IMG/VR virus record: IMGVR_UViG_3300033463_000025
Span: 1 to 64,000 of that record
Direction: 5' to 3' (one strand)
Length of the DNA: 64,000 nt
Source of the DNA: a virus
Taxonomy: Duplodnaviria > Caudoviricetes
Translations under genes and position numbers: made by a program
Shown here: positions 3,895 to 29,071 of the stretch, one piece after another
Layout: each line of letters opens with the position of its first letter
How positions within the stretch are numbered: position 1 is the first letter of the stretch
The notes under the pieces: generated by a model
What the model was told of the DNA's origin: nothing
Database searches by the model: none
The model's input: the letters and a program-made list of their open reading frames with translations, nothing else

Positions 3895-6800
3895 ACTCGT
3901 CAACAGAATATCCTGTACTCATTAATCACACAATTCCAAGAAGCTGAGGGCGCGATGTCGGCTATGGAAGACAGTGCTGGTACGTTATCAAGTTCATATC
4001 AGGAATATATGGATGGCATAACGGCACACACTCAACAATTCCAAGCATCGCTTGACCAACTGGCTACAACGACTTTTGATAATGAATCAATCAAAGGACT
4101 CGTTGATGCGGGTACATTGTTAATAAACGTACTCAATGGAATAATTGACATATTTGGCGTATTCCCTGTTGCAATAGCAGGAATAGGAATAGCTAAGTTA
4201 ATAAAAGATTTTGAACAATTAAAAATCTTAGGACTACAAGGCGCAACAAGTATGGATGCGGTTATAGTTGCTACTCAAGGAATGACTCTTGAGAATACAA
4301 AAGCCGCATTGGTATTAAGTAAATTAGAAGCCGAAGAAGTTGCAGATATATTAGTAAAAAAAGGATTAACGCAAGCTGAAGCTGACGAGGCGGCGGCTAC
4401 AATCATTAGTGCGAGAGCAGATAATACTGCCGCCGCAAGTACGGTAGCATATACATCTGCAACTGGTGGATTAACAACTGCGTTAAAGGGATTGTGGACT
4501 ACGATGAAAGCAAATCCCATCCTTTTAGTTATTGCCGCTGTAACTGCCGCAATTAGTCTTTTTAGTACAATTAAAGATAAAATAGAAGAAAGCAGACAAG
4601 CGGCAATAGATGCAGGTAAAACTGTTACTGATACTTCTTCTCAATTAAATACACTTATTGATAGTTATAAGCAATTAGCTTCAAAAGGTATCAATGATGT
4701 AAAATCACGTCAACAAGCCGCGAAAATCCAAAGTGATATTACAGATTTAGTCGGAGCGCAAGCGGCAAACTTGGATTTGGTTAATGGCAAACTCGACACT
4801 GAGCTTGGTAAGCTAAAGGATATTAATGCAGAAGTAGTAGATATTGCGACATTACAATCTGCTTATGAAAATGCCAAAAACAACACTAAAGATAAAAGTA
4901 AGGTAGATTTAAAGTCGCCTTTAGATTTCTCTGGAAACGGTCACGATATTAAAGTCCGAACTGAAGTGATGGAAAATCTTAGCAAAGAAAAAAGAGACTT
5001 GGTAAAAGACATATTTAAAGAATCCATCGGAAATAAAGGAGAAATTCAAGACGAATCTGAATGGTGGCAATTCCATGTTGATTTTACTAACTTAGCAGAA
5101 GAAGACTATAAATCTCGTTTGGAAATCTATAATACTATTATTGAAAACCTTAGGAAAAATGGATTTAATGATGATGATAGACTTTATTCAGAATTTCTTT
5201 CTCAAAAGAATAATTTGCAAGAGTTGTATAATCAACAAACAGAAGCCGCTAATAATTTAATATCTGGCTTAGTTCAAAATAAATACTATTCCCAAGAAAC
5301 AGATGTTTCATCTATGGAAGAATATCTTGCACTTAGAAATAAGATGATAAACGAAATTAGAAGTGAAGGTTCAGTTCAAGATATGCTCGCTGATAATTCT
5401 ATAAGTGCAGAAGATATAGAAAAAAGGGTTGATACATACCTTTCTGGTTTGGGTGAATACTCCGATTATTACGAGGAATGGTATTCAAAATTTGGTTCTG
5501 ATATTGCTAAAACGACCAACGATGTTAAAGAAACCTTATTATTAAATAATGTTTTCTCTGAAGCTAAATCCCAAGCTGAATACGATGCAAAATCAACCAT
5601 AGCTAAGGATATTGAAAGTTGGTATGATGGATTAACTAATAAAGACCGAGAAATAGTTTACAAGATTAAAATGGAGCGCGAGGGCGAAACAGATAATTGG
5701 TCGCTCGATAAGTGGAAAGAAGAAATAGCAAACTGGAAACCGTCTGAATCAGAAAAAATCTCGTTCAGTGATTTAATTAAAGACGATGGTTTTAAAACCA
5801 AAATTGATGATTATAAAGATAGCATCACTGATTTAGATGATACCCTTGACGATTTGCGTAGTGGCGACCTATCAGAAGACGATAAGATTGCGCTCTTTGA
5901 AAAATTCCCGCAACTCGCAAGCCAAGCCGACGACCTTGACAGCGCGATAGTAAGCCTTATCGAAGATTTTGAATCTGACGCTATTGAAGATTTCAACGAA
6001 CAGCTTGATTACATGGACACCGACGATGATGTGACCGCTTTAAATAATCTTAAAGATAGCCTCTTAGGATTAGCGAAAACTAAAAACGGCGTGTCTACAT
6101 TGAGCGACGAACTCTCCAAACTTAAAACAATTCTCGATGATGTATCTGACACCTATTCAGATATGAAGACCATTATAGACGATTACAACGAAAACGGCTA
6201 TCTTACTTTAGACAACTTGCAATCTATAATGGACATGGAGCCTGAATACATCAACCTGCTTATGGACGAGAACGGTCAAATCAACCTTAATTCGCAGGCT
6301 TATAAAAACTATGTAATTGCTAAAACAAAGGCTTTACTTGTAAATGAATTACAAGATTTATATAGCTCTGTTCTTGGCATGAAGGTTGAAGAAGCTCAGG
6401 CTTATGCCAACGCAAAAGCGTACAACGAAGAAACTCGTAGCGTACAAGACTTACTCACAGCTACTACGCAGTTGTATTATGCAAAGGCTATGGCTAAGGA
6501 TAGCGCAAATCATACCACGGCTTATACAGATGCTATGAAGCGTTCGTTTAGTACGGCGGCGAATTATGCTTCTATGGTGGACGAGTACATTAATAGTTTG
6601 TCTACCTCACAGAATGAGTTTAGCACATCGACCAGTGAAACAACTTCTGCGCTTGAGGCTCAAAAGGAAGCTCTTGAATCCCAGAAGGATGCACTCGAAG
6701 ACTACAAGGACGGACTTGAGGACGCTAAGGATGCACTCGAAGATTATAAGGACGGATTAGAGGACGCACAATCAAAACTGCAATCTTTAATTGACCTCAC

Positions 6801-9493: not shown

Positions 9494-12258
9494 TGAAACA
9501 TTCAAATAAAACCCCTAATGTTATCTTATACTCAATGAACAAGAAAGATGCTGTTGGTATATTAAGGCATATCAACAATTTTGAATGTGATTATTATTTC
9601 AATTCCGCTTCAGAAATTAAATTTGAAATACCGCAAAAAATCTATGATACTGATATATTTGAGTGGATAGATAATCCGCGTTATGATGATATAAAAGCAG
9701 ATATGTTACTTTATTTAGCTGACCCAACAGAACAATACAAGTTTAACGGAAGTCCTATATTAAGCAATAGCGATTATTCCTTAAAGGCTCTAAGTGATAT
9801 TCCCGAAAGCGACGTAAGACCTTCTACTAATATGAGTTACGATGCAAACAAAGGTATAAACGGTTTTAAAGTTCAAAGCGAAACATTATTATATGATTTA
9901 GGTTTATCGAAAGGATATATTTGGGAATGGCAACACTATTTTGATTCACATAATGGTTATGCTAATAGAAAAGCTCAAAGTGATAATGATAATTATGAAA
10001 GTTATAAAGGATATAGGCATATGTGTTGTGATAGCTTTATCCCTGTTGAAAATGGAGATATAATAGCTGTAAGGTCAAAGGTTTCAGATACAGCTTATTT
10101 TTACTATCGTGCATTTTTCTATGAAGATAATGATAGTACAACATTTGTAAAAAATTTGTTTTCAAATGATGATACAACTTGGGCGGTAGGAAATCCTATT
10201 TCTCGTGTTGGCATAAATAATGCAACTACTTCACGACACAGGCGTATTACCAGTATTGTAGCCACAAATAACGGTTCGATAACAGTAACGGATAATGATG
10301 GCACTCCTTTTAATATTGGTGTTTCAACAGATATGCACAGTAGCGGTATTAGAGGAACTTCAAGTGGAAATACCTTTACTGCGACCAATTCAGAAGATAT
10401 TGTTGCTGGTAATCAATACTATGTTGGATATGATATAGATGTTGCAGATGATATATCATCAGGCTTTATAAGACTTGAATGTGTAGATGTGCAAGCTGTT
10501 AAAACCACAGAGAATGGCACTACAAAATGGATATATCATTTAATGCCAGAAAACTATGTACGAGTATATAGTGGTTTAAGGAATGTCACTGAATTTAATG
10601 TGGGTGAGAAAACGCCTTATTCAATCAGACAGGTTTGGTGGGTTGTTACTGATACAGAGGAAAAAGATGACGGTATAAATAAAATTAAAACTATAACCGC
10701 TAAATCTTATGAATACTCATTATCTAAAAAATCGTTTTCACTTTCGGAAGGAACGATGCCACTTTATTTCCCAAATAAAATATATGATTTAATTACATCT
10801 TCAAATTGGAGACGTGACGTATGGCGAAGCAACGGAACAAATTATGCGACCACAGCGAAACAAAGGTGTACTCGTGGATTATTAAATCAAATATTGGATT
10901 ATTTACCAGAGTGGAAAATTGGATATGTCGATTCGGAAATAAAAAATAATATTCCTATTTCGCCACTTTGCTGTAAGTATAGAAATTTCGATGACGTAGA
11001 TAATGAAAATCTTTATACTTTTCTATTAGATGAAGTTGAGAAGGCATATCAATGTTTCTTTATATTTGATAGTGAAAAAATGACTATTAACATTATCAAT
11101 GGAAATCCAGCTAAAACAAATAGTAATGGCGCACCACAAGAAGATGGCAAGGTTGGTTCTGCTTCTAATATTGTATTGACTTGGAGTAACGCTATAAAAA
11201 ACACAAATATTCAAACAACAGAGGATAGAATTGTAACTGCATTGAGGGTACATACAGCGGAAGATACATATAGTATGGGATTAATCAATCCAACAGGAAA
11301 CAATATATTATATAATTTCTCTGCGTTTAAATCAGAAATGCAATATATTGCAGACCCAAACAAAAACAGAACGTTATGGGAAGCTGTTGAAGCATGGCAA
11401 ATTGCATATGATAATGCGAAGTCAAGCTATCAATCAACTGCAAAAACTTATGTTGAAAAACTACTTGAAGTAATCAAAAACGAATCGTCAATGTCTGACG
11501 CACTTACAAGATATAGAAGTGTTGTTAATAAAATAAATACTGGCGCAGATTATCATGGAGTAGATAGTCCATATTTGGATTATCCAATTCATTATACGAG
11601 TATAAACTTGGATTTCCCCGCAAGTTGGGCTACACCTCATTTACCTGATTTATATGATGCCTCAAAAAACTATTATGAAACATTAGTTAAAAGGGATAAC
11701 AATATCAGTGATAAAAAAACAAATTACAGAACATTAAGGAATACCAGTAATCTATTGACGATGGATTATAATACCGCCGTTGCTAATGACGGATATGCTA
11801 TCCTCTCCCCTACCGAAGTTTTGGAATTACAAAAATTTATCATTGAGGGTGACTGGACTAATGAGAACGCTGTTTTCTCTGATGACTTTTCGGCAGATGA
11901 TATAATAAACACATTAAAAAGTGTTTATACCGAAGCAAAAAGTGACCACGATAATTATATCTCTCAACAGTGTTATGAATTTGATGTTACATCTACAAAT
12001 ATTACGGCACTTGATGGCTTTGCAAAAAACATAGACAATTTAACTTTAGGCAGGATGATTACATTACAAGTAGATAGTGGTGATTGGCAATTCCCAATTC
12101 TTATGGGTTATCATATTGACCATGCTGATGATAGTGATTTCAACATGACGTTTGATACAAATTATTCAAATAAGCCGCTTAAAAAGAGGTTTGTAAAGAT
12201 ATTTGGAGCAATTAATCAAACAGGTGTTAAAACAAATAGTTACACATTTGAAGACTAA
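9493..12258 (+). CDS. Tail hub / Tal-like baseplate protein
   Basis: Follows Dit (overlapping TAATG); SEIKFEI, KTITAKSYEYSL, INPTGNNILYNFS motifs of siphophage minor tail proteins. Confidence 0.65.
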   Translation: MKHSNKTPNVILYSMNKKDAVGILRHINNFECDYYFNSASEIKFEIPQKIYDTDIFEWIDNPRYDDIKADMLLYLADPTEQYKFNGSPILSNSDYSLKALSDIPESDVRPSTNMSYDANKGINGFKVQSETLLYDLGLSKGYIWEWQHYFDSHNGYANRKAQSDNDNYESYKGYRHMCCDSFIPVENGDIIAVRSKVSDTAYFYYRAFFYEDNDSTTFVKNLFSNDDTTWAVGNPISRVGINNATTSRHRRITSIVATNNGSITVTDNDGTPFNIGVSTDMHSSGIRGTSSGNTFTATNSEDIVAGNQYYVGYDIDVADDISSGFIRLECVDVQAVKTTENGTTKWIYHLMPENYVRVYSGLRNVTEFNVGEKTPYSIRQVWWVVTDTEEKDDGINKIKTITAKSYEYSLSKKSFSLSEGTMPLYFPNKIYDLITSSNWRRDVWRSNGTNYATTAKQRCTRGLLNQILDYLPEWKIGYVDSEIKNNIPISPLCCKYRNFDDVDNENLYTFLLDEVEKAYQCFFIFDSEKMTINIINGNPAKTNSNGAPQEDGKVGSASNIVLTWSNAIKNTNIQTTEDRIVTALRVHTAEDTYSMGLINPTGNNILYNFSAFKSEMQYIADPNKNRTLWEAVEAWQIAYDNAKSSYQSTAKTYVEKLLEVIKNESSMSDALTRYRSVVNKINTGADYHGVDSPYLDYPIHYTSINLDFPASWATPHLPDLYDASKNYYETLVKRDNNISDKKTNYRTLRNTSNLLTMDYNTAVANDGYAILSPTEVLELQKFIIEGDWTNENAVFSDDFSADDIINTLKSVYTEAKSDHDNYISQQCYEFDVTSTNITALDGFAKNIDNLTLGRMITLQVDSGDWQFPILMGYHIDHADDSDFNMTFDTNYSNKPLKKRFVKIFGAINQTGVKTNSYTFED

Positions 12259-19193: not shown

Positions 19194-20372
19194 ATGTCCG
19201 ATATTAAATGTTATGACAAATATGGAATTGAGATAGACCATCTCACTCAATGGGATTTGAACGTTTCGGTAAAGATACCCAACTGGCAATATGAGCTTGC
19301 ACCTATTTGTCATTTCGCAACGAGGTTTAATGATACCTCGCTGACGGTCACTTCAACTTTAGAAGATGGAACGGTTACAGTTGAAGTACCAAACGTATTC
19401 CTTACTGATACAGAAGCCGTGTTAATGTATGTATTCCTTTATGACCCAGAATCAGATAGTGGTAGAACAATATATACCGTCGTATTCCCTGTCCATAAAA
19501 AGAAGAAGCCAAATGATTACGAGTATGTTGATAACGTAGACGTTATTGAGATAAGCACGTTGAAAGCACAATTTGATGTTCTTGTTGCAGAAGCCGAAGT
19601 AGCCGTTCACGAAAGAATCAACAGCTTAGATAGTGCTTATACAAATACGATTCTTGAAATCAAAAACCAAATACATAGTGATGTGGTAAATCTTAATAAA
19701 GAAATATCAACTAATAACGAGCGTCTTACCGCTGATATTACACAAGCTCGTGAACAATTAAGCGGAGATATTACCTCCGCAAGACAGGGATTGCAAAACG
19801 AAATAACTAATTCAAATAATGCTTTAACACAGCAAATAGCTTCAGCTTTAGCTTTGCTTTTGAGCAGTATTAAGGACGGTTCACCAGAATTATACTTTGG
19901 TGATGTTACGGAGCTTGCTAATAAAGAAGCTGGCTTTTATTTATATATTGATGAAACGAGTGAAAACAACGGATATATCTACTATTGGGATGGTGTTAAT
20001 CTTTCTGATAGATTGCTCTATTATGCAGGAATGGTTATCAATGATGGCTCGGTCACTTATGAAATGCTGTCGGATAACTTAAAGAAAGAATCTGTTGAAA
20101 CAATTATCTCCTATACCCTACTCGCGGAAAGTTGGGAAAACAACGCACAAGAGCTTGATGTTTCAGACCATTACACGGTAACACATAATACAAAGGCAGA
20201 TATTGACCTTACTACCACAGCTTATAACCAGCTCCTTGAGGATGGTTGCTGTGGTCTTTTTATTGCTACAAATGAGAACAACGATAATAAGTTAATTGCA
20301 CACGCCTTACGCACATCGCCCACTACAGACGTGGCAATACAAATAACACTTAGAGAGGTGAAGACAACATGA
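19194..20372 (+). CDS. BppU-like tail fibre adaptor with a coiled coil
   Basis: LTQWD..V.VP...L N-terminus and KKKPNDY; C-terminal domain shared with 12314-15943. Confidence 0.65.
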   Translation: MSDIKCYDKYGIEIDHLTQWDLNVSVKIPNWQYELAPICHFATRFNDTSLTVTSTLEDGTVTVEVPNVFLTDTEAVLMYVFLYDPESDSGRTIYTVVFPVHKKKKPNDYEYVDNVDVIEISTLKAQFDVLVAEAEVAVHERINSLDSAYTNTILEIKNQIHSDVVNLNKEISTNNERLTADITQAREQLSGDITSARQGLQNEITNSNNALTQQIASALALLLSSIKDGSPELYFGDVTELANKEAGFYLYIDETSENNGYIYYWDGVNLSDRLLYYAGMVINDGSVTYEMLSDNLKKESVETIISYTLLAESWENNAQELDVSDHYTVTHNTKADIDLTTTAYNQLLEDGCCGLFIATNENNDNKLIAHALRTSPTTDVAIQITLREVKTT

Positions 20373-23300
20373 TTATTGGACAAATCGCTTATGCCGCTTC
20401 TCCTTCTGCTGAAGACTTTAGAATATTCAATAGTGAAAGTGCATTGACTACCTATTTAGGCACACCTGCCGCAAAAGCGGGTCAAGGCGTAAAGGTTTTA
20501 GACTCCACCAGTGGAAAGTATAAAGCATATATCATTCAAGGTACTGCTGGGCATTTCACTACAAGCCCTATGGGAGCTGGTGATTTTATTGGTAGTCAAC
20601 TCCCTTCTGTTGCTGAAGGCGATGAGGATTTAATCTATTATATCTATAATAGCGAGGATGACATTTATCAACAGTATCGCTTTAATGGAACGAGATATAT
20701 TTTAGTTGGTTCTAATAACAAAAAGGCGTATGTTGGTAGTTCGTTGCCTGGTGTTGGTGATACGGATATTGATTATTACATCGGCACAGCACAGGACGGT
20801 TTTATTCATTATCGTTATTTTGCTGACGAAATAAATGATTATATCGCTGTCGGCGGAGATTCATATACAAAAGCAGAAGTCGATGCGTTATTAAATGCTC
20901 AAGTTATCTATTATTACTATTTATCGTATGGTACTGCAATAGTAGAAGAAAACGGAGAACAAATTGAAAAGAATAATGTAGTTCGCCTTTGGAGATATAC
21001 AAACCCCGATGATGTTGGTGATACATCTGGTGAACTTGGAACAGTAGTCACTTGGTTTGAGTTGCAAGGCGGAGGTAGTGGCTCGTCACAAGCAACTAAT
21101 ATGACGTTTAACAGAGTAACGTCAGAGAATATTGCGATGTCTGCTGGTGACGTAGAAACAAACGGAATAGTTATTTTAGCTTCGTTTGCAGACTATGAAA
21201 CTGGTGGCGAGCCAGTTGCCGCGACCTATTCAATTAAAGTAGGAAATACTGTGGTAGAAACAGGAACGGCAATACAATGTAAGGATGCCAGCGGAAATCA
21301 ATTATATGACGAAGACGAAAATCCAATTTATAATGTTTTTGACGTAACGGATTATTGTCCGATTGGTAAAGAATCAACGGTTGCAATTTCAATAACAGAT
21401 GAATACGGAAATATGATTATCCGTAGATGGTATGTCAAAATTGTTGACATTAGCATTTCAAGTAAATTTGACGACTCTTATTCAAGACCTGTTGGAAGCG
21501 CAATTAACTTCCCGTATAAGCCAGAAGGCTTAGGCACAAAAACAATTCATTTTGTTTTAGATGGGGTTGAAATTGGAACTGCATCAACAAATAACACAGC
21601 CGAAACAACTTATTCTATTCCTTCGACATATGCGACATATGGCTCACACTTTTTTGATTGCTATGTTACCACAGTTGTTGGTGGTTCTACTATAACTTCA
21701 AATCATATCTATAAAGACATTGTTTGCTATTCGCAAGACGGTAGCTTGCCAGTCATTGGTTGTATTTATAGAAATGATATGTATGGCACTGTTCAATTAA
21801 ACGAATATGACACGCTTAATATCCCATATACGGTTTACGACCCAAGCACAAATAACCCGACTGTTACTCTGTCAGTTGATGGAACGACAGTTGATACATC
21901 ATCGCTCACATCACATAGTAATATTTGGGCGTTTAAGGGTAGTGAAGTTGGTAGTCATACTCTTACGATTGCTTGCGGTTCAACGTCTGTTACAATCGTT
22001 GTAAACGTAATTGATTTAGGATATGATATTAGTCCTGTTACGACTGGTCTTGCTTTTGATTTTGACCCAACTGGTATAACAAACAGTAGCACGAATAGAC
22101 TGTGGCATGATACAAACGATAATACCGTTGCTCTTTCTGTATCGGCAAACTTCGATTGGGATAACGGCGGTTATCAAATTGATAGTGAAACAGGCGAAAG
22201 CTATTTCCTTGTAAAAGCAGGAACAAGAGCAACAATTTCTTATAATCTTTTTGGCACTAATCCAAAATATGACGGCGCAGAGTTTAAGTTAGTATTTAAG
22301 ACGGGAAACGTTAGAGATGCCGAAGCGACATTTTTGAGCTGTGTATCTGATAACATTGGTCTTAAAATGGATGTTCACTCTGCGACAATCGCTAATAGTG
22401 TTAATATTGCAGACCCATTATGGATTCCTTATAGCGAAGAGGATATTATCGAGTTTGAGTATAATATCAGTCCGAGCATTAACGGATTATCGTATAATCC
22501 CCTGATAATGACATATGAAGATGGCGTTCCTTTCAAGCCATTAGAATACACAAGCGGTACATTTAACACATTAACTGGTGAATGGAATGGCGGCGCACAA
22601 TTACATCAAGATACGCCTGTCCCCATTACTATTGGTTCTGATGACTGCGATGTTTATATTTATCGAATGAAAGCGTACACCGTTTCTCTTTCTGATTCGC
22701 AGATTCTTGATAACTTTATAGCCGATGCAAGAAATTCGGAAACAATGGTTAATAGATATGTACGGAATCAGGTTTACGATAGAAACAGCGAGCTTACTCC
22801 TGAATCCGTTGCTGAGGCTTGTCCAAATCTTCGCGTTATTACAATCTCAGCACCATATTTCACAAACGATAAAGATGAAAAAGTACCAGATACAATAATT
22901 GAATATATTTACAAGAATGGCGACCCTGTACTTGAAAACTGGAAAGCCATTAACTGTAAGCACTCTGGTCAGGGTACAACTTCTAACGACTATGGTTTTG
23001 CTGGTAGAAATATGCTTCTTTATCTTAACGATGATAATACCGTTATTACGCTTGGCGATGATACCACTACGGTTAGTAAAGTTGCATTAACATTTGGCAA
23101 TCATATTAACATAGACCCCAGCAGTTATCCTACAACTGCGGATTATACAGAAGCCGTACAGCAAGCATTAAATACTAATGCCACATCAATCCCGAACAAC
23201 GTGTTTAACATAAAAGTTAATATCGCTTCTTCTGAAAATGCTAACAACGCATTACTGGCTAAAAGATATAATGATTATCTGCCTTATAAAATGCCAGCGC

Positions 23301-26300
23301 AAAAGAGAGATAGTAGAGTAAAAAATACTATGGAATTTGTAAATTGCGTTGTATTCATTAAGGAAACAGATAACGACTTAACAAGGCACAGAGAGTTCCA
23401 AGATAAAGAATGGCATTTCTATGCACTCGGTAATATTGGTGATGCTAAGAAGACAGACAAAACAAGGGTGAACGATAAGAATGACCCGAAGGAATTTGTA
23501 ATTGAAATCAAGGATAATGGTAAGCCCAACTCTGGATTTAATACTGGTACTGGCACATATCCTATTTCTGCTTCACAATGGGTCGCTGGTAATAGCGCAT
23601 ATGATTCGCTTTACAATAATTGGGATAGTTCTTTCGAGTTCCGTTATACCAAAGCTGACTATGACCCCAAGAATAATATAACAAGTCCACAGGCAGAGCT
23701 TAACAAGCAAAAGTGGCGTGATTTTTACGAGTGGGTTATAACTGTATCTGATGCTGATTTCCCGACCGAACTCGGAGATTGGTTTATTGTTGATTCTGCA
23801 TTGTATTACTATGTATTTACTCATCGTTATACAATGATTGATAACCGTGCTAAAAACTCTTTCTGGCATTGGAGCAAGGTATATATTACCGAAGCAGAAG
23901 CGGCTGAAATGGGTGAAACCGAAGCAAGTTATTATACCATTGATAACGCAAAGGCGGCTATCAATGAGGGCTATCGCTTTGAAATGTGGGGTTATGACTT
24001 TGATACCGCACTTGGTATCAACAACTCTGGTGTAATGAGTGAACAGTATCGCTATGGTAAAGAGGATAGCGATTACAGAAGCGATGGCGATTCTACTTCT
24101 GGCTATCTGTTTAATGAAGCAACGAGCGTATTCTGGTGCAGACTCCGTGATTTAATGCCTACAGAGATTGCGAATATGTATCAAACCGTTGCTACGAACA
24201 AGAGTAGTGCTTGGGATGCCGAACATTTAATCAATGAATTTGATAATTGGCAAGCTCAATTCCCCGAAGAGATTTGGAGATTAAACTACGAAAGAGAATA
24301 TACCCGTACATATCAATCTGGCGTAGACAGATTTATGACACAGATGATGCAGGGTAGAAAGAAATACCATCGTAGACAATGGGAACGCGACCAAGCTCCT
24401 TACTTTGGAACAAAGTACGGATTGATTTATTATAAGAACACTGACCGTATTTCATTCAGATGTAACCAACCGATTTTCGAGGTTGACAGTAGCCGTATTT
24501 TTGGTAATCAATCTACCGCAAATACCTATCTCGCTTCCGCAAGTGCCGCAGTAGACCAAAACGTAAAAATCAAGCAACAGGATAACACATATAAACTCTA
24601 TGTGATTAAATCTGTAAACGGCTCATTAACTTATATCCCGATTGTTGAGCCGAATTACGATTTAACTATCAAGCCTTATTCTGATTTGTATTTGTCTGCT
24701 GAATTTGGTAATGATGGTGAAACAACGGAAGTTGTTGCTATCAGAGCTAAAGCGGGTCAAAGCTATACAATCGAATGTCCTGCTGGCAGAAACATGACTA
24801 ATACTATGGTTAAGATTTATTGCGGTTCACACATTCAAGAGTTGAGCGACCTTTCGCCTTGTTATATCGAAGATAACGATGTCAGTATGGCGAGAAAACT
24901 TCGCAAGCTGATAATTGGTAATAGCACTCTTGGTTATAGAAGTTATATTACTACTCTTAAATTAGGTAACAACCCCATTCTTGAAGAGCTGAATATCGAA
25001 AACTGTAACACATTCACTAACCCCTCTATTGATTTGACGAATTGCGGAAACCTTGTAAAGTTTTATGCAAACGGAAGTAACATTACACAAGTATCATTCG
25101 CTAACTACGGTAAAGTTGCTGATGTTGAAATGCCTGCTAATATCAACACAATTAGCATGAGAAACCTTAACTACCTTGAGGATGCTAATTTTGATATGCC
25201 TTCATATAGCAGTATGCGTAGTGCAACTATCGTCAATGGTATTCTTGATACTAAAACCTTTATGGGTAACATTAGCCCGTACTTAACATATCTGTATTTA
25301 ACTGGATTTGATTGGACTTTCTTAAATGTTGACTTTACTAATCCGCAAGACTTCTTAATTGAAAAGCTGTATGCTATCAATAGTGTTACGCTGATAGGTA
25401 CAATCAGAATCGACAGAATCCCCTATAGATACGTTCAAAAGTATCACGAGAAATGGGGCGACGATTTTGTAATTGACGCTACACTTGTTGTGCCCGAATA
25501 TAGCATTACGTTCCTTAACGACGATAAAACACCGATTTCATCTATAGATAATAATACTCCGTATGTAGAATGGGTCGATGGTGAAAGCGCGGCTTACAAT
25601 CCAATTACAGAAGGTTATGTTAATACACCAACAAAAGCAAGCTCTGCTAAGTATGACTATACGTTTAGTCATTGGGCTATTTTTGTAAACAATACCGCTG
25701 GCGCAGAATATACGTTTGGTCGTGTGTTATCATCGAATATCACATTAATTGCTGTCTATACAAGTAGCTTGAGAACGTTTACCGTTAATTGGTACACATC
25801 CCCTGTCAACACGAATATTACTTCTGGTAAGTGGAACTCTAAAAACAACAGTGCCAACAAAACGTTGCTTCATACGGAAACAAACGTTCAGTATGGCGCA
25901 GAGGTATCTTTTGACATAACACAAAAAGTAAACTGTAAAAATGTTACTTCTGGTAATGTGACTTACTTAGAGAGTTATGTATTCTCTTCTTGGAGTGATT
26001 CAACGGGTGGTATCACAGGAGATACAGACGTTTATGCTGTTTGGGATTATGCTAAGATTTTCAAGAATAACGGCGAATTAATCCTTGAAGATACATTAGG
26101 CAATAGAAAGGCACTTAATAATATGACCTCTGCTGAAATCGCGGCGGTTTGTGCTAACGGAGAAGCTACGACATTCTTCCATGATAAGGATTATTTTGAT
26201 TATATTATGGGTCACGACTATTCGTTTGCTAACGTGGATGAAGAAGTCCTCGTACCGCTTGGCGAAGAACTCCACCTTGACGGTGTTACTCCGATAATCC

Positions 26301-27736
26301 CAACTGATTCACAAGGCAATCAAATTAAACTGTTCTCAGCCGATGCACCATCTTTCACTATGGCTATTGATTATCAGTTTACAAATGACGCAAACGATTA
26401 CGCTCCCTCAAATAATAAAACACTGATTTCGTGTTTTGAAAATCCCGATAACGGGAACGACGGTTTTGCATTGAGGTACTATTCCAACAAAGCAAACGTC
26501 CTTTGGGGCGATAAGAACCAAAACGTTACCACAGAGCAGAATCGTGATATGCTCGTTCTCCGTCATGTACAAGGAAGCGATGAGTTATACATCTACGCTT
26601 TTAATGGTGGAGATATTAGCTCTGGTTATTATTCAAATACCAAACTTGCGACTTCTAAAACTCGCACAGCATATAATAGTACAAATGCTCCGCTTGTCTT
26701 TGGCGGCATAGCAGAATATGATTCTGAAAATCAAGTATATATTGCAAGCGATAGCTCTACATATATCGGAGCAGGTATAATCTATTGGTGCAAGATTTGG
26801 TATGCTGATTTGGGTGATACCGTTGCAAAAGAGCTTGCTTCTTGGACTCGTGACGATGACAGACAAGAATATTATCAAGCTCAGTTAGACTCTGCTGGTA
26901 CTTTATTTGGCAGTCCTTATCTACTTTCTGGTACTTCAACGAGAGCATCAGCTTCGTTCATTTCAAATAACCTTATGAGATATTTGCATCAAATGAATGT
27001 TGATAACGTCAACGCTGGCGGTTGGGGTGGTAATACTTCAACCGAAGCTAAGTATCAAGCATCTATGCACTATTTCATGCAATACAAGTTCTATCCCGCT
27101 ATTCCAAACGAGATAAGAAACTTAATTGTACAGGTGAAAGTACCATCAACTACTGGTAGTCAATCTTCAAACATTGGCAACTACGATAGTTATGTCTACA
27201 TCCCCTGCTATAGAGAAATGGCAGATAATAATGATACTAAGAACGCTCCTTATTCTAATGAGGGTAGCTTCATAAGTTGGAACACTACAAATCAACGTAG
27301 GCTTGGTTTTAGAGATATTATCACATTAGATACATCTCTTTTGGCTAACGGTAATGCAAAGTTTACTGGTTCAAGCGAACCAATCTTCGCTCAGAATAAA
27401 GGCTTCTACGATGCCGACAGTAATCCTAATGGCGTTCGTGAATACGATATTTGGCACATAGATAATAACAATGTGGCAAGAATATATCTGTCCGCACAAA
27501 CGCTCAGGAAGAAGAACATCACACCTACTGTGGCGATTACACAGGGTACGGAGCTTCTCGGCGGCTGGTGCGGCGCGTATACCTATTTCCTGCGCTCCCC
27601 GAATACTGGCAACGCCAACAATTTTTGGTATGTGAACCTCATTGGTGCTACCAACAACTACTCCAACGCGAACTACTGGATTGGCGTTCGCCCGTGCTTC
27701 TCAATTTTTGCTCAAATTTCTCAAAACGAAAATTAA
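20369..27736 (+). CDS. Giant tail/adhesin protein; DGR target with a C-terminal C-type-lectin-like variable domain
   Basis: 2455 aa; Ig/ConA-like regions, CotH-like block, LRRs; C-terminal YFLRSP...GVRPCF encoded by the VR. Confidence 0.85.
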   Translation: MIIGQIAYAASPSAEDFRIFNSESALTTYLGTPAAKAGQGVKVLDSTSGKYKAYIIQGTAGHFTTSPMGAGDFIGSQLPSVAEGDEDLIYYIYNSEDDIYQQYRFNGTRYILVGSNNKKAYVGSSLPGVGDTDIDYYIGTAQDGFIHYRYFADEINDYIAVGGDSYTKAEVDALLNAQVIYYYYLSYGTAIVEENGEQIEKNNVVRLWRYTNPDDVGDTSGELGTVVTWFELQGGGSGSSQATNMTFNRVTSENIAMSAGDVETNGIVILASFADYETGGEPVAATYSIKVGNTVVETGTAIQCKDASGNQLYDEDENPIYNVFDVTDYCPIGKESTVAISITDEYGNMIIRRWYVKIVDISISSKFDDSYSRPVGSAINFPYKPEGLGTKTIHFVLDGVEIGTASTNNTAETTYSIPSTYATYGSHFFDCYVTTVVGGSTITSNHIYKDIVCYSQDGSLPVIGCIYRNDMYGTVQLNEYDTLNIPYTVYDPSTNNPTVTLSVDGTTVDTSSLTSHSNIWAFKGSEVGSHTLTIACGSTSVTIVVNVIDLGYDISPVTTGLAFDFDPTGITNSSTNRLWHDTNDNTVALSVSANFDWDNGGYQIDSETGESYFLVKAGTRATISYNLFGTNPKYDGAEFKLVFKTGNVRDAEATFLSCVSDNIGLKMDVHSATIANSVNIADPLWIPYSEEDIIEFEYNISPSINGLSYNPLIMTYEDGVPFKPLEYTSGTFNTLTGEWNGGAQLHQDTPVPITIGSDDCDVYIYRMKAYTVSLSDSQILDNFIADARNSETMVNRYVRNQVYDRNSELTPESVAEACPNLRVITISAPYFTNDKDEKVPDTIIEYIYKNGDPVLENWKAINCKHSGQGTTSNDYGFAGRNMLLYLNDDNTVITLGDDTTTVSKVALTFGNHINIDPSSYPTTADYTEAVQQALNTNATSIPNNVFNIKVNIASSENANNALLAKRYNDYLPYKMPAQKRDSRVKNTMEFVNCVVFIKETDNDLTRHREFQDKEWHFYALGNIGDAKKTDKTRVNDKNDPKEFVIEIKDNGKPNSGFNTGTGTYPISASQWVAGNSAYDSLYNNWDSSFEFRYTKADYDPKNNITSPQAELNKQKWRDFYEWVITVSDADFPTELGDWFIVDSALYYYVFTHRYTMIDNRAKNSFWHWSKVYITEAEAAEMGETEASYYTIDNAKAAINEGYRFEMWGYDFDTALGINNSGVMSEQYRYGKEDSDYRSDGDSTSGYLFNEATSVFWCRLRDLMPTEIANMYQTVATNKSSAWDAEHLINEFDNWQAQFPEEIWRLNYEREYTRTYQSGVDRFMTQMMQGRKKYHRRQWERDQAPYFGTKYGLIYYKNTDRISFRCNQPIFEVDSSRIFGNQSTANTYLASASAAVDQNVKIKQQDNTYKLYVIKSVNGSLTYIPIVEPNYDLTIKPYSDLYLSAEFGNDGETTEVVAIRAKAGQSYTIECPAGRNMTNTMVKIYCGSHIQELSDLSPCYIEDNDVSMARKLRKLIIGNSTLGYRSYITTLKLGNNPILEELNIENCNTFTNPSIDLTNCGNLVKFYANGSNITQVSFANYGKVADVEMPANINTISMRNLNYLEDANFDMPSYSSMRSATIVNGILDTKTFMGNISPYLTYLYLTGFDWTFLNVDFTNPQDFLIEKLYAINSVTLIGTIRIDRIPYRYVQKYHEKWGDDFVIDATLVVPEYSITFLNDDKTPISSIDNNTPYVEWVDGESAAYNPITEGYVNTPTKASSAKYDYTFSHWAIFVNNTAGAEYTFGRVLSSNITLIAVYTSSLRTFTVNWYTSPVNTNITSGKWNSKNNSANKTLLHTETNVQYGAEVSFDITQKVNCKNVTSGNVTYLESYVFSSWSDSTGGITGDTDVYAVWDYAKIFKNNGELILEDTLGNRKALNNMTSAEIAAVCANGEATTFFHDKDYFDYIMGHDYSFANVDEEVLVPLGEELHLDGVTPIIPTDSQGNQIKLFSADAPSFTMAIDYQFTNDANDYAPSNNKTLISCFENPDNGNDGFALRYYSNKANVLWGDKNQNVTTEQNRDMLVLRHVQGSDELYIYAFNGGDISSGYYSNTKLATSKTRTAYNSTNAPLVFGGIAEYDSENQVYIASDSSTYIGAGIIYWCKIWYADLGDTVAKELASWTRDDDRQEYYQAQLDSAGTLFGSPYLLSGTSTRASASFISNNLMRYLHQMNVDNVNAGGWGGNTSTEAKYQASMHYFMQYKFYPAIPNEIRNLIVQVKVPSTTGSQSSNIGNYDSYVYIPCYREMADNNDTKNAPYSNEGSFISWNTTNQRRLGFRDIITLDTSLLANGNAKFTGSSEPIFAQNKGFYDADSNPNGVREYDIWHIDNNNVARIYLSAQTLRKKNITPTVAITQGTELLGGWCGAYTYFLRSPNTGNANNFWYVNLIGATNNYSNANYWIGVRPCFSIFAQISQNEN
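27569..27703 (+). repeat. DGR variable repeat (VR)
   Basis: Aligns to TR 28657-28788; every substitution lies opposite a TR adenine; one extra codon. Confidence 0.95.
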
Positions 27737-27825: not shown

Positions 27826-28626
27826 ATGAGTGTTATTAAAGCAAAAAGACATATAGCAAAAAGTGAATTTGAACAAACCTTTTCGTTATTCTATTCTGAC
27901 TCTAATAGAATACTATCCAAAGTTCCTAAAAGACGCGAAAGATTTGTATGCCCTAAAATAATATGGTTAAACAATTCAATCTACAACGACTTAATGATAG
28001 TACAAGAAATCTTATTTGCAAAACAACCAGAAAAGAAAGACGAAAAGCAGAGAAGAATAAAATCAGCTTTGCAGAAAATTGAATGTTTAGAAAAAGAAAT
28101 TATGGTTTATTCAAATATTATGTCAATGCCGTTTGATAAACAATGTAGTTGGTGTAATACATTAAATAGAGAAGTTGCTTTATTAAATGGCATGGTAGAA
28201 AACGAATCCGACAAATCCACTTTTAGGATAAAAGTGTTGGATTGGGATAAGATTTACAAATTTAAAGCATTATATAAAATGTGCGAATTACACAGATATA
28301 CACACGGAAAAGCTGTTAGAGCAATAAACTCATTAGAAAACGGCAATACACCGTTAGTTATCGAATTGATAAACGAAGCATTTTACAGTGTTATGACAGC
28401 TAATTTCTATCCGCAAACCAAAGAAGAATATCTCGATAGAGCGAAGCGGATAGAAAGAGCATTACAATGTTTAAATGAAATTCAAAGACCAATGCTATCG
28501 TACTTTAACACTATGAAATATAGCAATAGAGTAATGAAAGAATGGTCTGACTTGTTAAAAACAGAAATCAGATTATTAAAAGGTTTACTGAAATCGGATA
28601 AAAAGAGATTTAGTAAACTTCCTTAA
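27826..28626 (+). CDS. avd: DGR accessory variability determinant, tandem two-domain form
   Basis: Lies between VR and TR; MSVIKAKR..SEF start; two W...L..E..LL.G...SDK motifs; basic and helical. Confidence 0.8.
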   Translation: MSVIKAKRHIAKSEFEQTFSLFYSDSNRILSKVPKRRERFVCPKIIWLNNSIYNDLMIVQEILFAKQPEKKDEKQRRIKSALQKIECLEKEIMVYSNIMSMPFDKQCSWCNTLNREVALLNGMVENESDKSTFRIKVLDWDKIYKFKALYKMCELHRYTHGKAVRAINSLENGNTPLVIELINEAFYSVMTANFYPQTKEEYLDRAKRIERALQCLNEIQRPMLSYFNTMKYSNRVMKEWSDLLKTEIRLLKGLLKSDKKRFSKLP

Positions 28627-28656
28627 TTAAAAATATAATTGGTTAAAACCTATACT

Positions 28657-28788
28657 TGCGGCGCGAATAACTATTTCCTGCGCTCCCCGAATACTGGCAA
28701 CACCAACAATTTTTGGAATGTGAACAACAATGGTGCTACCAACAACAACAACGCGAACAACTGGAATGGCGTTCGCCCGTGATTCTCA
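28657..28788 (+). ncRNA. DGR template repeat (TR)
   Basis: AAC/AAT-rich non-coding copy of the VR (17 AAY triplets in the VR frame) between avd and RT. Confidence 0.95.
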
Positions 28789-29071
28789 TTTTCAAGTAGC
28801 TATGTATTAAGAGTGAAGAGTAATAAAAAATTGAGAAGGAGATTTTAACCATCTATTTGTAAAAATAGTAAATAATATGTTTTCGTGGTTTAACGGAAAC
28901 TCGCTGTGGTGGCGATTCGTAACGGTCGAGTGGAACGCTTCTTGCATAGACAAGCCTTTGCCTAACTTGTTTTTATACTCAACCATAATAGCCAGAACAG
29001 GCAAAATATAATAAGGCTAAACGAAGGAAAAACCAAAATTATAAGAATCTAAAAAGAAAGGAGGTTGTCTT

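Follow-up and report, generated by a model that had tools for sequence, protein, structure and literature searches.

The Avd protein is essential for reverse transcription in DGRs, and what is understood of its role comes from one system, that of BPP-1. In this DGR, the gene for Avd (bAvd; structures 4DWL and 8UB7/8UB8; families PF22296 and NF033474) precedes that of the RT and is flanked by VR and TR; its product is one 128-aa bundle that assembles as a homopentamer. Without Avd, the BPP-1 RT has no activity; it contacts two of the five Avd protomers through its N-terminal extension, and all five together hold the stem-loop that lies at the beginning of the spacer, bases of which are inserted between the protomers (bioRxiv 10.1101/2023.10.23.563531). 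Single-domain Avds are usually about 110-140 aa in size. One DGR with two separate avd genes is mentioned in the description given by Wu et al. (2018; PMC5758913), where avd genes are said to be "of similar length". The same fold is also known outside DGRs, in the 23S rRNA intervening-sequence family (PF05635/TIGR02436; structures 2GSC and 2RLD), whose members are single-domain cellular proteins.

The window analyzed here is the whole stretch of 64,000 nucleotides that forms positions 1 to 64,000 of the virus record IMGVR_UViG_3300033463_000025 (Duplodnaviria; Caudoviricetes). The source record is complete, with a length of 143,758 bp and direct terminal repeats. The window carries an intact DGR in which VR, a double avd gene, TR and RT follow one another on the plus strand, and in which the mismatches between VR and TR are adenine-specific. 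The target is a giant tail-fiber-like protein of 2455 aa (ORF 20369..27736, +), and its residues 2378-2446 match Pfam DUF6273 (E 4.8e-11), the domain that bears the VR. This domain, at the extreme C-terminus, is the sole Pfam match of the target, the remainder of which is unannotated. The VR lies at the 3' end of the target gene (27569..27707, +) and matches the TR (28657..28792, +) over 139 nt with 89% identity; 11 mismatches fall at TR adenines and one at a T on the far 3' edge, and the VR has in addition a 3-nt insertion. The TR begins 30 nt past the avd stop codon. The RT (29072..30400, +; 442 aa; RVT_1 E 6e-18) has a TTG start located 8 nt after GGAGG, and its translation displays the DGR-type motifs LGSQISQ and YMDD.

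Retrohoming normally reproduces the length of the TR. The 3-nt difference, equivalent to one codon, is located in an AAC-rich stretch (VR 27658-27662 vs. TR 28746-28750), and the same difference in length between VR and TR was observed in three other loci (L005, L008, and L009); the excess may result from slippage in the AAC repeats. On the 3' side of the RT (30315-33819) are a 249-aa ORF, a membrane protein resembling CmpB (PF06541, E 4.9e-13), a pair of small ORFs, and, on the minus strand at 32626-33819, a tyrosine-integrase-like ORF, whose counterpart in locus L035 matches Phage_integrase with E 1.3e-29. A temperate lifestyle is probable for this phage. In relatives, a tRNA gene is found near this region.

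The slot occupied by avd in BPP-1, between VR and TR, is filled here by an ORF of 266 aa (27826..28626, +; pI 9.56), which exceeds the usual size of a single-domain Avd. An earlier note on this DNA had described the product as two similar halves, and this is borne out by direct comparison: residues 1-131 (27826..28218, +) and 132-266 (28219..28626, +) align by BLASTP with E 2e-7 and 22% identity over 89 residues. When an alignment of 95 full-length members of the family was split at the domain boundary, the two resulting profiles were aligned by hhalign with E 6.1e-22 and a probability of 99.4% over 120 columns, that is, over the whole bundle. The internal repeat is thus real and far beyond chance. 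All four of the peptides cited in the earlier note are present in the translation of this ORF.

In the AlphaFold2 model of the whole chain, built from an alignment of 17 sequences, the protein is predicted to form two four-helix bundles (pLDDT 89.5, pTM 0.87). The helices are predicted at residues 14-30, 35-61, 68-98, and 103-123 in the N half, and at residues 147-165, 174-191, 199-230, and 234-262 in the C half. Both halves are basic: the pI is 9.21 in the N half and 9.72 in the C half, as compared with 9.55 for bAvd; across the family, the mean pI is 9.1 for the N halves and 8.7 for the C halves. The list of structural matches obtained with the whole model probes the C half only, and the N half was therefore folded separately (model m09d476f143ad, pLDDT 90.4).

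Avd-family chains come first in the structure searches made with each of the halves. For the C half, the best matches were 2gsc (Z 15.8), 2rld (Z 15.6), 4dwl (Z 13.0), and 8ub7_B (Z 12.9), and the same four chains were the top four in a Foldseek-independent search of 48,161 chains; with chain 4dwl_A of bAvd, 106 of 109 residues were aligned at an rmsd of 2.4. [quoted passage not shown] The best fold matches of the tandem protein are thus 2GSC and 2RLD (rmsd 1.8-2.8), whose family shows no significant sequence match to it. In BFVD, entries named "Avd-like protein" were recovered at TM 0.79-0.80. Foldseek with the whole model returned no match with E < 0.001, and 2gsc and 2rld were nonetheless top-ranked. 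No solved chain among the 48,161 contains both bundles at low rmsd. Since helical bundles can reach Z values of about 13-14 through their arrangement alone, the argument for an Avd does not rest on these scores; it rests on the ranking of the matches, on the genetic context, and on a bridge in sequence.

This bridge is indirect. Neither the protein nor either of its halves matched PF22296, PF05635, NF033474, or TIGR02436, even with E values of up to 1, and searches of Pfam, NCBIfam, and PHROGs gave no Avd match for the whole protein or for its halves. The search of PDB sequences, with the protein or with a 17-member profile, returned only noise such as translin. The comparison by hhalign of each half with the bAvd alignment gave E 0.32, this being a weak test given how narrow the latter alignment is (65-88% identity, Neff 2.3). 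Direct sequence similarity between bAvd and the tandem protein is therefore not significant. In the family as a whole, sub-threshold matches to NF033474 were found in 7 of 54 tandem members (best E 5e-4). The single-domain relatives described below match the profiles of both the N half (E 1.8e-22) and the C half (E 1.5e-26), and themselves have sub-threshold matches to NF033474 (6 of 14 proteins, best E 0.0019), to PF05635 (best E 2.7e-4), to PF22296, and to TIGR02436. A second Avd of the same phage, P0291, matches NF033474 with E 2.3e-11 (below the cut-off), the profile of these single-domain relatives with E 1.7e-9, and each of the two half-profiles with an E of about 1e-5. The link between the tandem protein and the curated Avd models is thus a transitive one, which passes through sister single-domain Avds and P0291. 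It had been stated beforehand that the idea of a double Avd would fail if only one half were Avd-like; both halves proved to be so, and the identity of the protein as a tandem Avd is well supported.

The tandem family is not confined to this phage. An exhaustive search of representatives (E up to 1e-3) identified 128 clusters at 50% identity, mostly of 260-285 aa; the same search also returned proteins of 133-141 aa, more of which were added by a profile search. The corresponding ESM Atlas clusters are unnamed. An artefactual fusion of two genes was considered and rejected, as the 128 clusters share a single open frame of the same length. Species-representative genomes that carry the gene are those of Ruminococcus sp. 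YE282, a Tyzzerella MAG, and a Gastranaerophilales MAG; by tblastn, no relative was found among the GenBank phages (INPHARED).

The genetic context is equally constant. In all 23 IMG/VR loci with a tandem homolog (29-78% identity), an RT with 40-80% identity to that of the window is present 540-700 nt downstream. Of these loci, 22 also contain a TR and a VR that differ from each other almost exclusively at adenines of the TR, the exception (L014) having only 152 nt of upstream sequence. When the RT tree was rooted on bRT, the RTs linked to tandem Avds (22 distinct sequences) came out as one clade with a support of 0.965, which lies within the RTs of single-Avd DGRs. With the earliest possible start codon taken for every RT, the RT ORFs have a median length of 439 aa in the tandem clade and 384 aa in the single-Avd DGRs, and the spacer between TR and RT has a median length of 285 and 213 nt, respectively. 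The expectation that the tandem form would track with an RT clade and with long spacers was therefore correct.

Some of the single-domain proteins of 133-141 aa recovered with the family belong to sister phage DGRs that also have an RT-2 spacer RNA, and these are clear homologs of both halves of the tandem protein. Eight of them (P0152, P0283-P0287, P0289, and P0290) are referred to here as MSV-type Avds: they combine an N-terminal MSVxxxKR tail, like that of the N half, with a C-terminal SDxxRY/F tail, like that of the C half, so that one bundle contains together all the motifs that are split between the two bundles of the tandem protein. An RT was found in 16 of the 18 single-domain loci analyzed, and 12 of the 18 have a full VR-avd-TR-RT cassette with adenine-dominated mismatches and an RT with 36-38% identity to that of the window; the remaining loci are short or lack a clean TR/VR match. 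In a tree of the halves and of the single-domain proteins, all N halves group together, as do all C halves (support 0.975), and the MSV-type proteins constitute a third group; the C-half group also takes in six short proteins whose N-termini coincide with the domain boundary. This separation, together with the single RT clade, fits one event of duplication and fusion, which would have occurred within a phage DGR lineage with an RT-2 spacer RNA; the fused form has since stayed with that RT clade.

Tandem and single Avds can be carried by the same genome. In the phage studied here, a second complete DGR is located outside the window, at about 79400-81800 on the minus strand (L048:5434-7776). It comprises a 222-aa target whose VR lies at L048:7148-7215, the 123-aa single-domain Avd P0291, a TR with 11 mismatches, all at adenines, and an RT of its own (PF00078, 52 bits). 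In related phages (loci L034 and L035), a tandem-Avd module is followed, 1.1 kb past its RT, by a module composed of a single Avd, an RT-2 RNA, and an RT. In L035 (326-5935), the tandem Avd is at 326-1120 and its RT at 1581-2870, the single Avd at 4001-4414 and the RT-2 RNA at 4567-4781; the second RT comes next, followed by an integrase. Locus L023 likewise has a second RT, at 9679-10524. The case described by Wu et al. (2018; PMC5758913), as far as that description allows the comparison, also has more than one Avd unit per cassette, but those units are encoded by separate genes, whereas the units of the tandem protein are covalently fused and diverged.

The two halves have not kept the same residues. 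Scored at the positions that are invariant in MSV-type Avds, the N half retains M1, V3, R8, and K35-R36 (frequencies 0.76-1.00), R8 (0.97) and R36 (1.00) being near-invariant, and these residues are absent from the C half. Conversely, the C half retains N193 (1.00), P196 (0.91), R205 (1.00), and A212, as well as S257, D258, R261, F262, and L265 (0.82-0.98) of the C-terminal tail with its SDKxRF motif; these are lost from the N half, where the ancestral N60, P64, and R73 are missing. The C half is also the better conserved of the two, with a mean pairwise identity of 32% vs. 24% for the N half. As judged from these alignments, ancestral motifs have been retained in a complementary manner after the duplication. 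This pattern supports the earlier proposal of specialized halves, and it assigns neither the RT nor the RNA to one half in particular.

The spacer between TR and RT is 279 nt long, as compared with 140 nt in BPP-1, and contains an RNA related to Rfam RT-2 (RF03077; 28854..29049, +). The match extends over the full length of the model with 35.9 bits and E 2.7e-6, which is under the gathering score of 40; the 3' core of the spacer, including the ACGCUnCUUGCAU segment, is aligned to RT-2 with high posterior probability. The RT-2 scores are of 114-141 bits in the single-Avd sister DGRs and of 32-67 bits in the tandem-clade loci, the best of the latter being 67.4 bits in L012. RT-2 therefore appears to be the spacer RNA of this DGR lineage, and the low scores of the tandem clade relative to its sisters suggest that the RNA partner has diverged there as well. 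A candidate duplex between 28640-28651 and 28840-28852, comparable to the cPRT Stop of BPP-1, was no better in the window than in shuffled sequences (z -0.13), and the RNA from the end of avd to the RT did not fold better than shuffles either (z -0.69).

Taken with the constant position of the gene, these observations make it probable that the ORF encodes the Avd cofactor of the DGR in a duplicated and fused form, the two bundles of which would now do different parts of the work. By analogy with the bRT-Avd-RNA complex of BPP-1, the tandem Avd would provide a dock for the RT's N-terminal extension and clasp a stem-loop in the spacer RNA, and would thereby position the template-primer duplex of TR and spacer within the active site of the RT for the adenine-mutagenic synthesis of cDNA. 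The docking of the RT and the gripping of the RNA would then be divided in some way between the two bundles.

The stoichiometry of such a complex is less certain. A chain of two bundles cannot tile one ring of five bundles, which leaves an even-numbered ring with alternating bundles, an arrangement in two layers, or the admixture of C halves produced on their own. An alternating pseudo-ring of N and C bundles, even in number, for instance three chains with six bundles, is the arrangement toward which we lean, and we regard its chances as a little short of even. More tentatively, the assembly may be asymmetric or even-numbered, with distinct jobs for the N and C bundles (docking of the RT and gripping of the spacer RNA) and with an Avd-RT-RNA triad that is orthogonal to the second, single-Avd DGR of the phage. 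It is also conceivable, but rather unlikely, that the tandem Avd keeps the five-fold symmetry of bAvd, with five chains in two layers: the barrel would probably be made of C halves, which are the better conserved and which keep N193, P196, R205, and the C-terminal tail, while the other five bundles, stacked or peripheral, would provide extra contacts with the RT or the RNA. There is a precedent in that bAvd with the pentameric Fae protein fused to its C-terminus still supports cDNA synthesis with a truncated RNA; however, the Fae-fused layer blocked the reverse transcription of RNA with an intact TR (bioRxiv 10.1101/2023.10.23.563531), so that the RNA would have to follow another path if a second layer were present there. 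The confident and fixed packing between the bundles in the predicted single chain (pTM 0.87) may also speak against this arrangement.

A return to five bundles could otherwise be obtained if the gene had two products, the full-length protein and a C half translated from an internal start, for example in a mixed ring of two tandem chains and one C half. In the window, a candidate site is present at the junction of the two bundles, at 28225..28239 (+), where AGGA (28225-28228) is followed after 5 nt by an in-frame GTG (28234) and then by a TTG (28237). A Shine-Dalgarno-like motif with an in-frame start at residues 130-141 was found in 12 of 20 family genes, and the density of such sites at the boundary is about ten times that of the rest of the genes. 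Furthermore, five database proteins of 133-135 aa (P0101, P0103, P0116, P0118, and P0120) start exactly at the domain boundary and group with the C halves in the tree. However, many of the 20 genes are close relatives of one another, the acidic and purine-rich linker could yield Shine-Dalgarno-like strings by chance, and the short proteins may stem from gene prediction on truncated contigs; searches for loci with P0128 and P0101 found nothing. Neither the closest relatives (L002, L003, L043, and L044) nor L007, L008, and L011 have the site, and the idea of two products, with the mixed rings that it would allow, is for this reason held to be improbable.

The loss of N60, P64, R73, and the C-tail motifs from the N half, together with its faster evolution, could alternatively mean that the C half is the sole working Avd, the N half being in decay or recruited to another task such as regulation or phage-host conflict. 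This seems very doubtful. The N half is full-length in nearly all of the 128 clusters and has no stops, it is predicted to fold with a pLDDT of 90, and it is basic; moreover, R8 and R36, two ancestral positions that are gone from the C half, are kept in the N half, which argues for complementation and not for decay. That the protein might be no Avd at all, but a generic helical phage protein of two bundles placed in the cassette by chance, is hardly credible: although no curated Avd HMM was passed and four-helix bundles easily obtain high structural scores, the position of the gene is fixed in 23 of 23 loci, in which the identity of the RT co-varies with that of the protein, Avd-family chains take the top ranks for both halves, and a transitive link in sequence leads to NF033474. 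A tandem Avd with divided roles thus remains the reading that we prefer.

We encountered no account of a fused or tandem Avd in our searches of the literature, in agreement with the earlier suggestion that the architecture was possibly undescribed, and the protein apparently represents a conserved Avd variant that has not been described before. The curated Avd models miss this family, and surveys of DGRs would consequently score such elements as lacking an Avd; the DGRs affected are the abundant ones of phages of rumen and gut Clostridia. A covalent dimer with divided motifs resembles a built-in separation-of-function mutant. The tandem Avd could help to tell the Avd surfaces on which the RT relies from those used by the RNA, and to find out if five-fold symmetry is a requirement at all. 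Finally, the presence of a tandem-Avd DGR and a single-Avd DGR in one phage provides a natural test of the specificity, or orthogonality, of these cofactors, a property that would be useful for engineered DGR mutagenesis.
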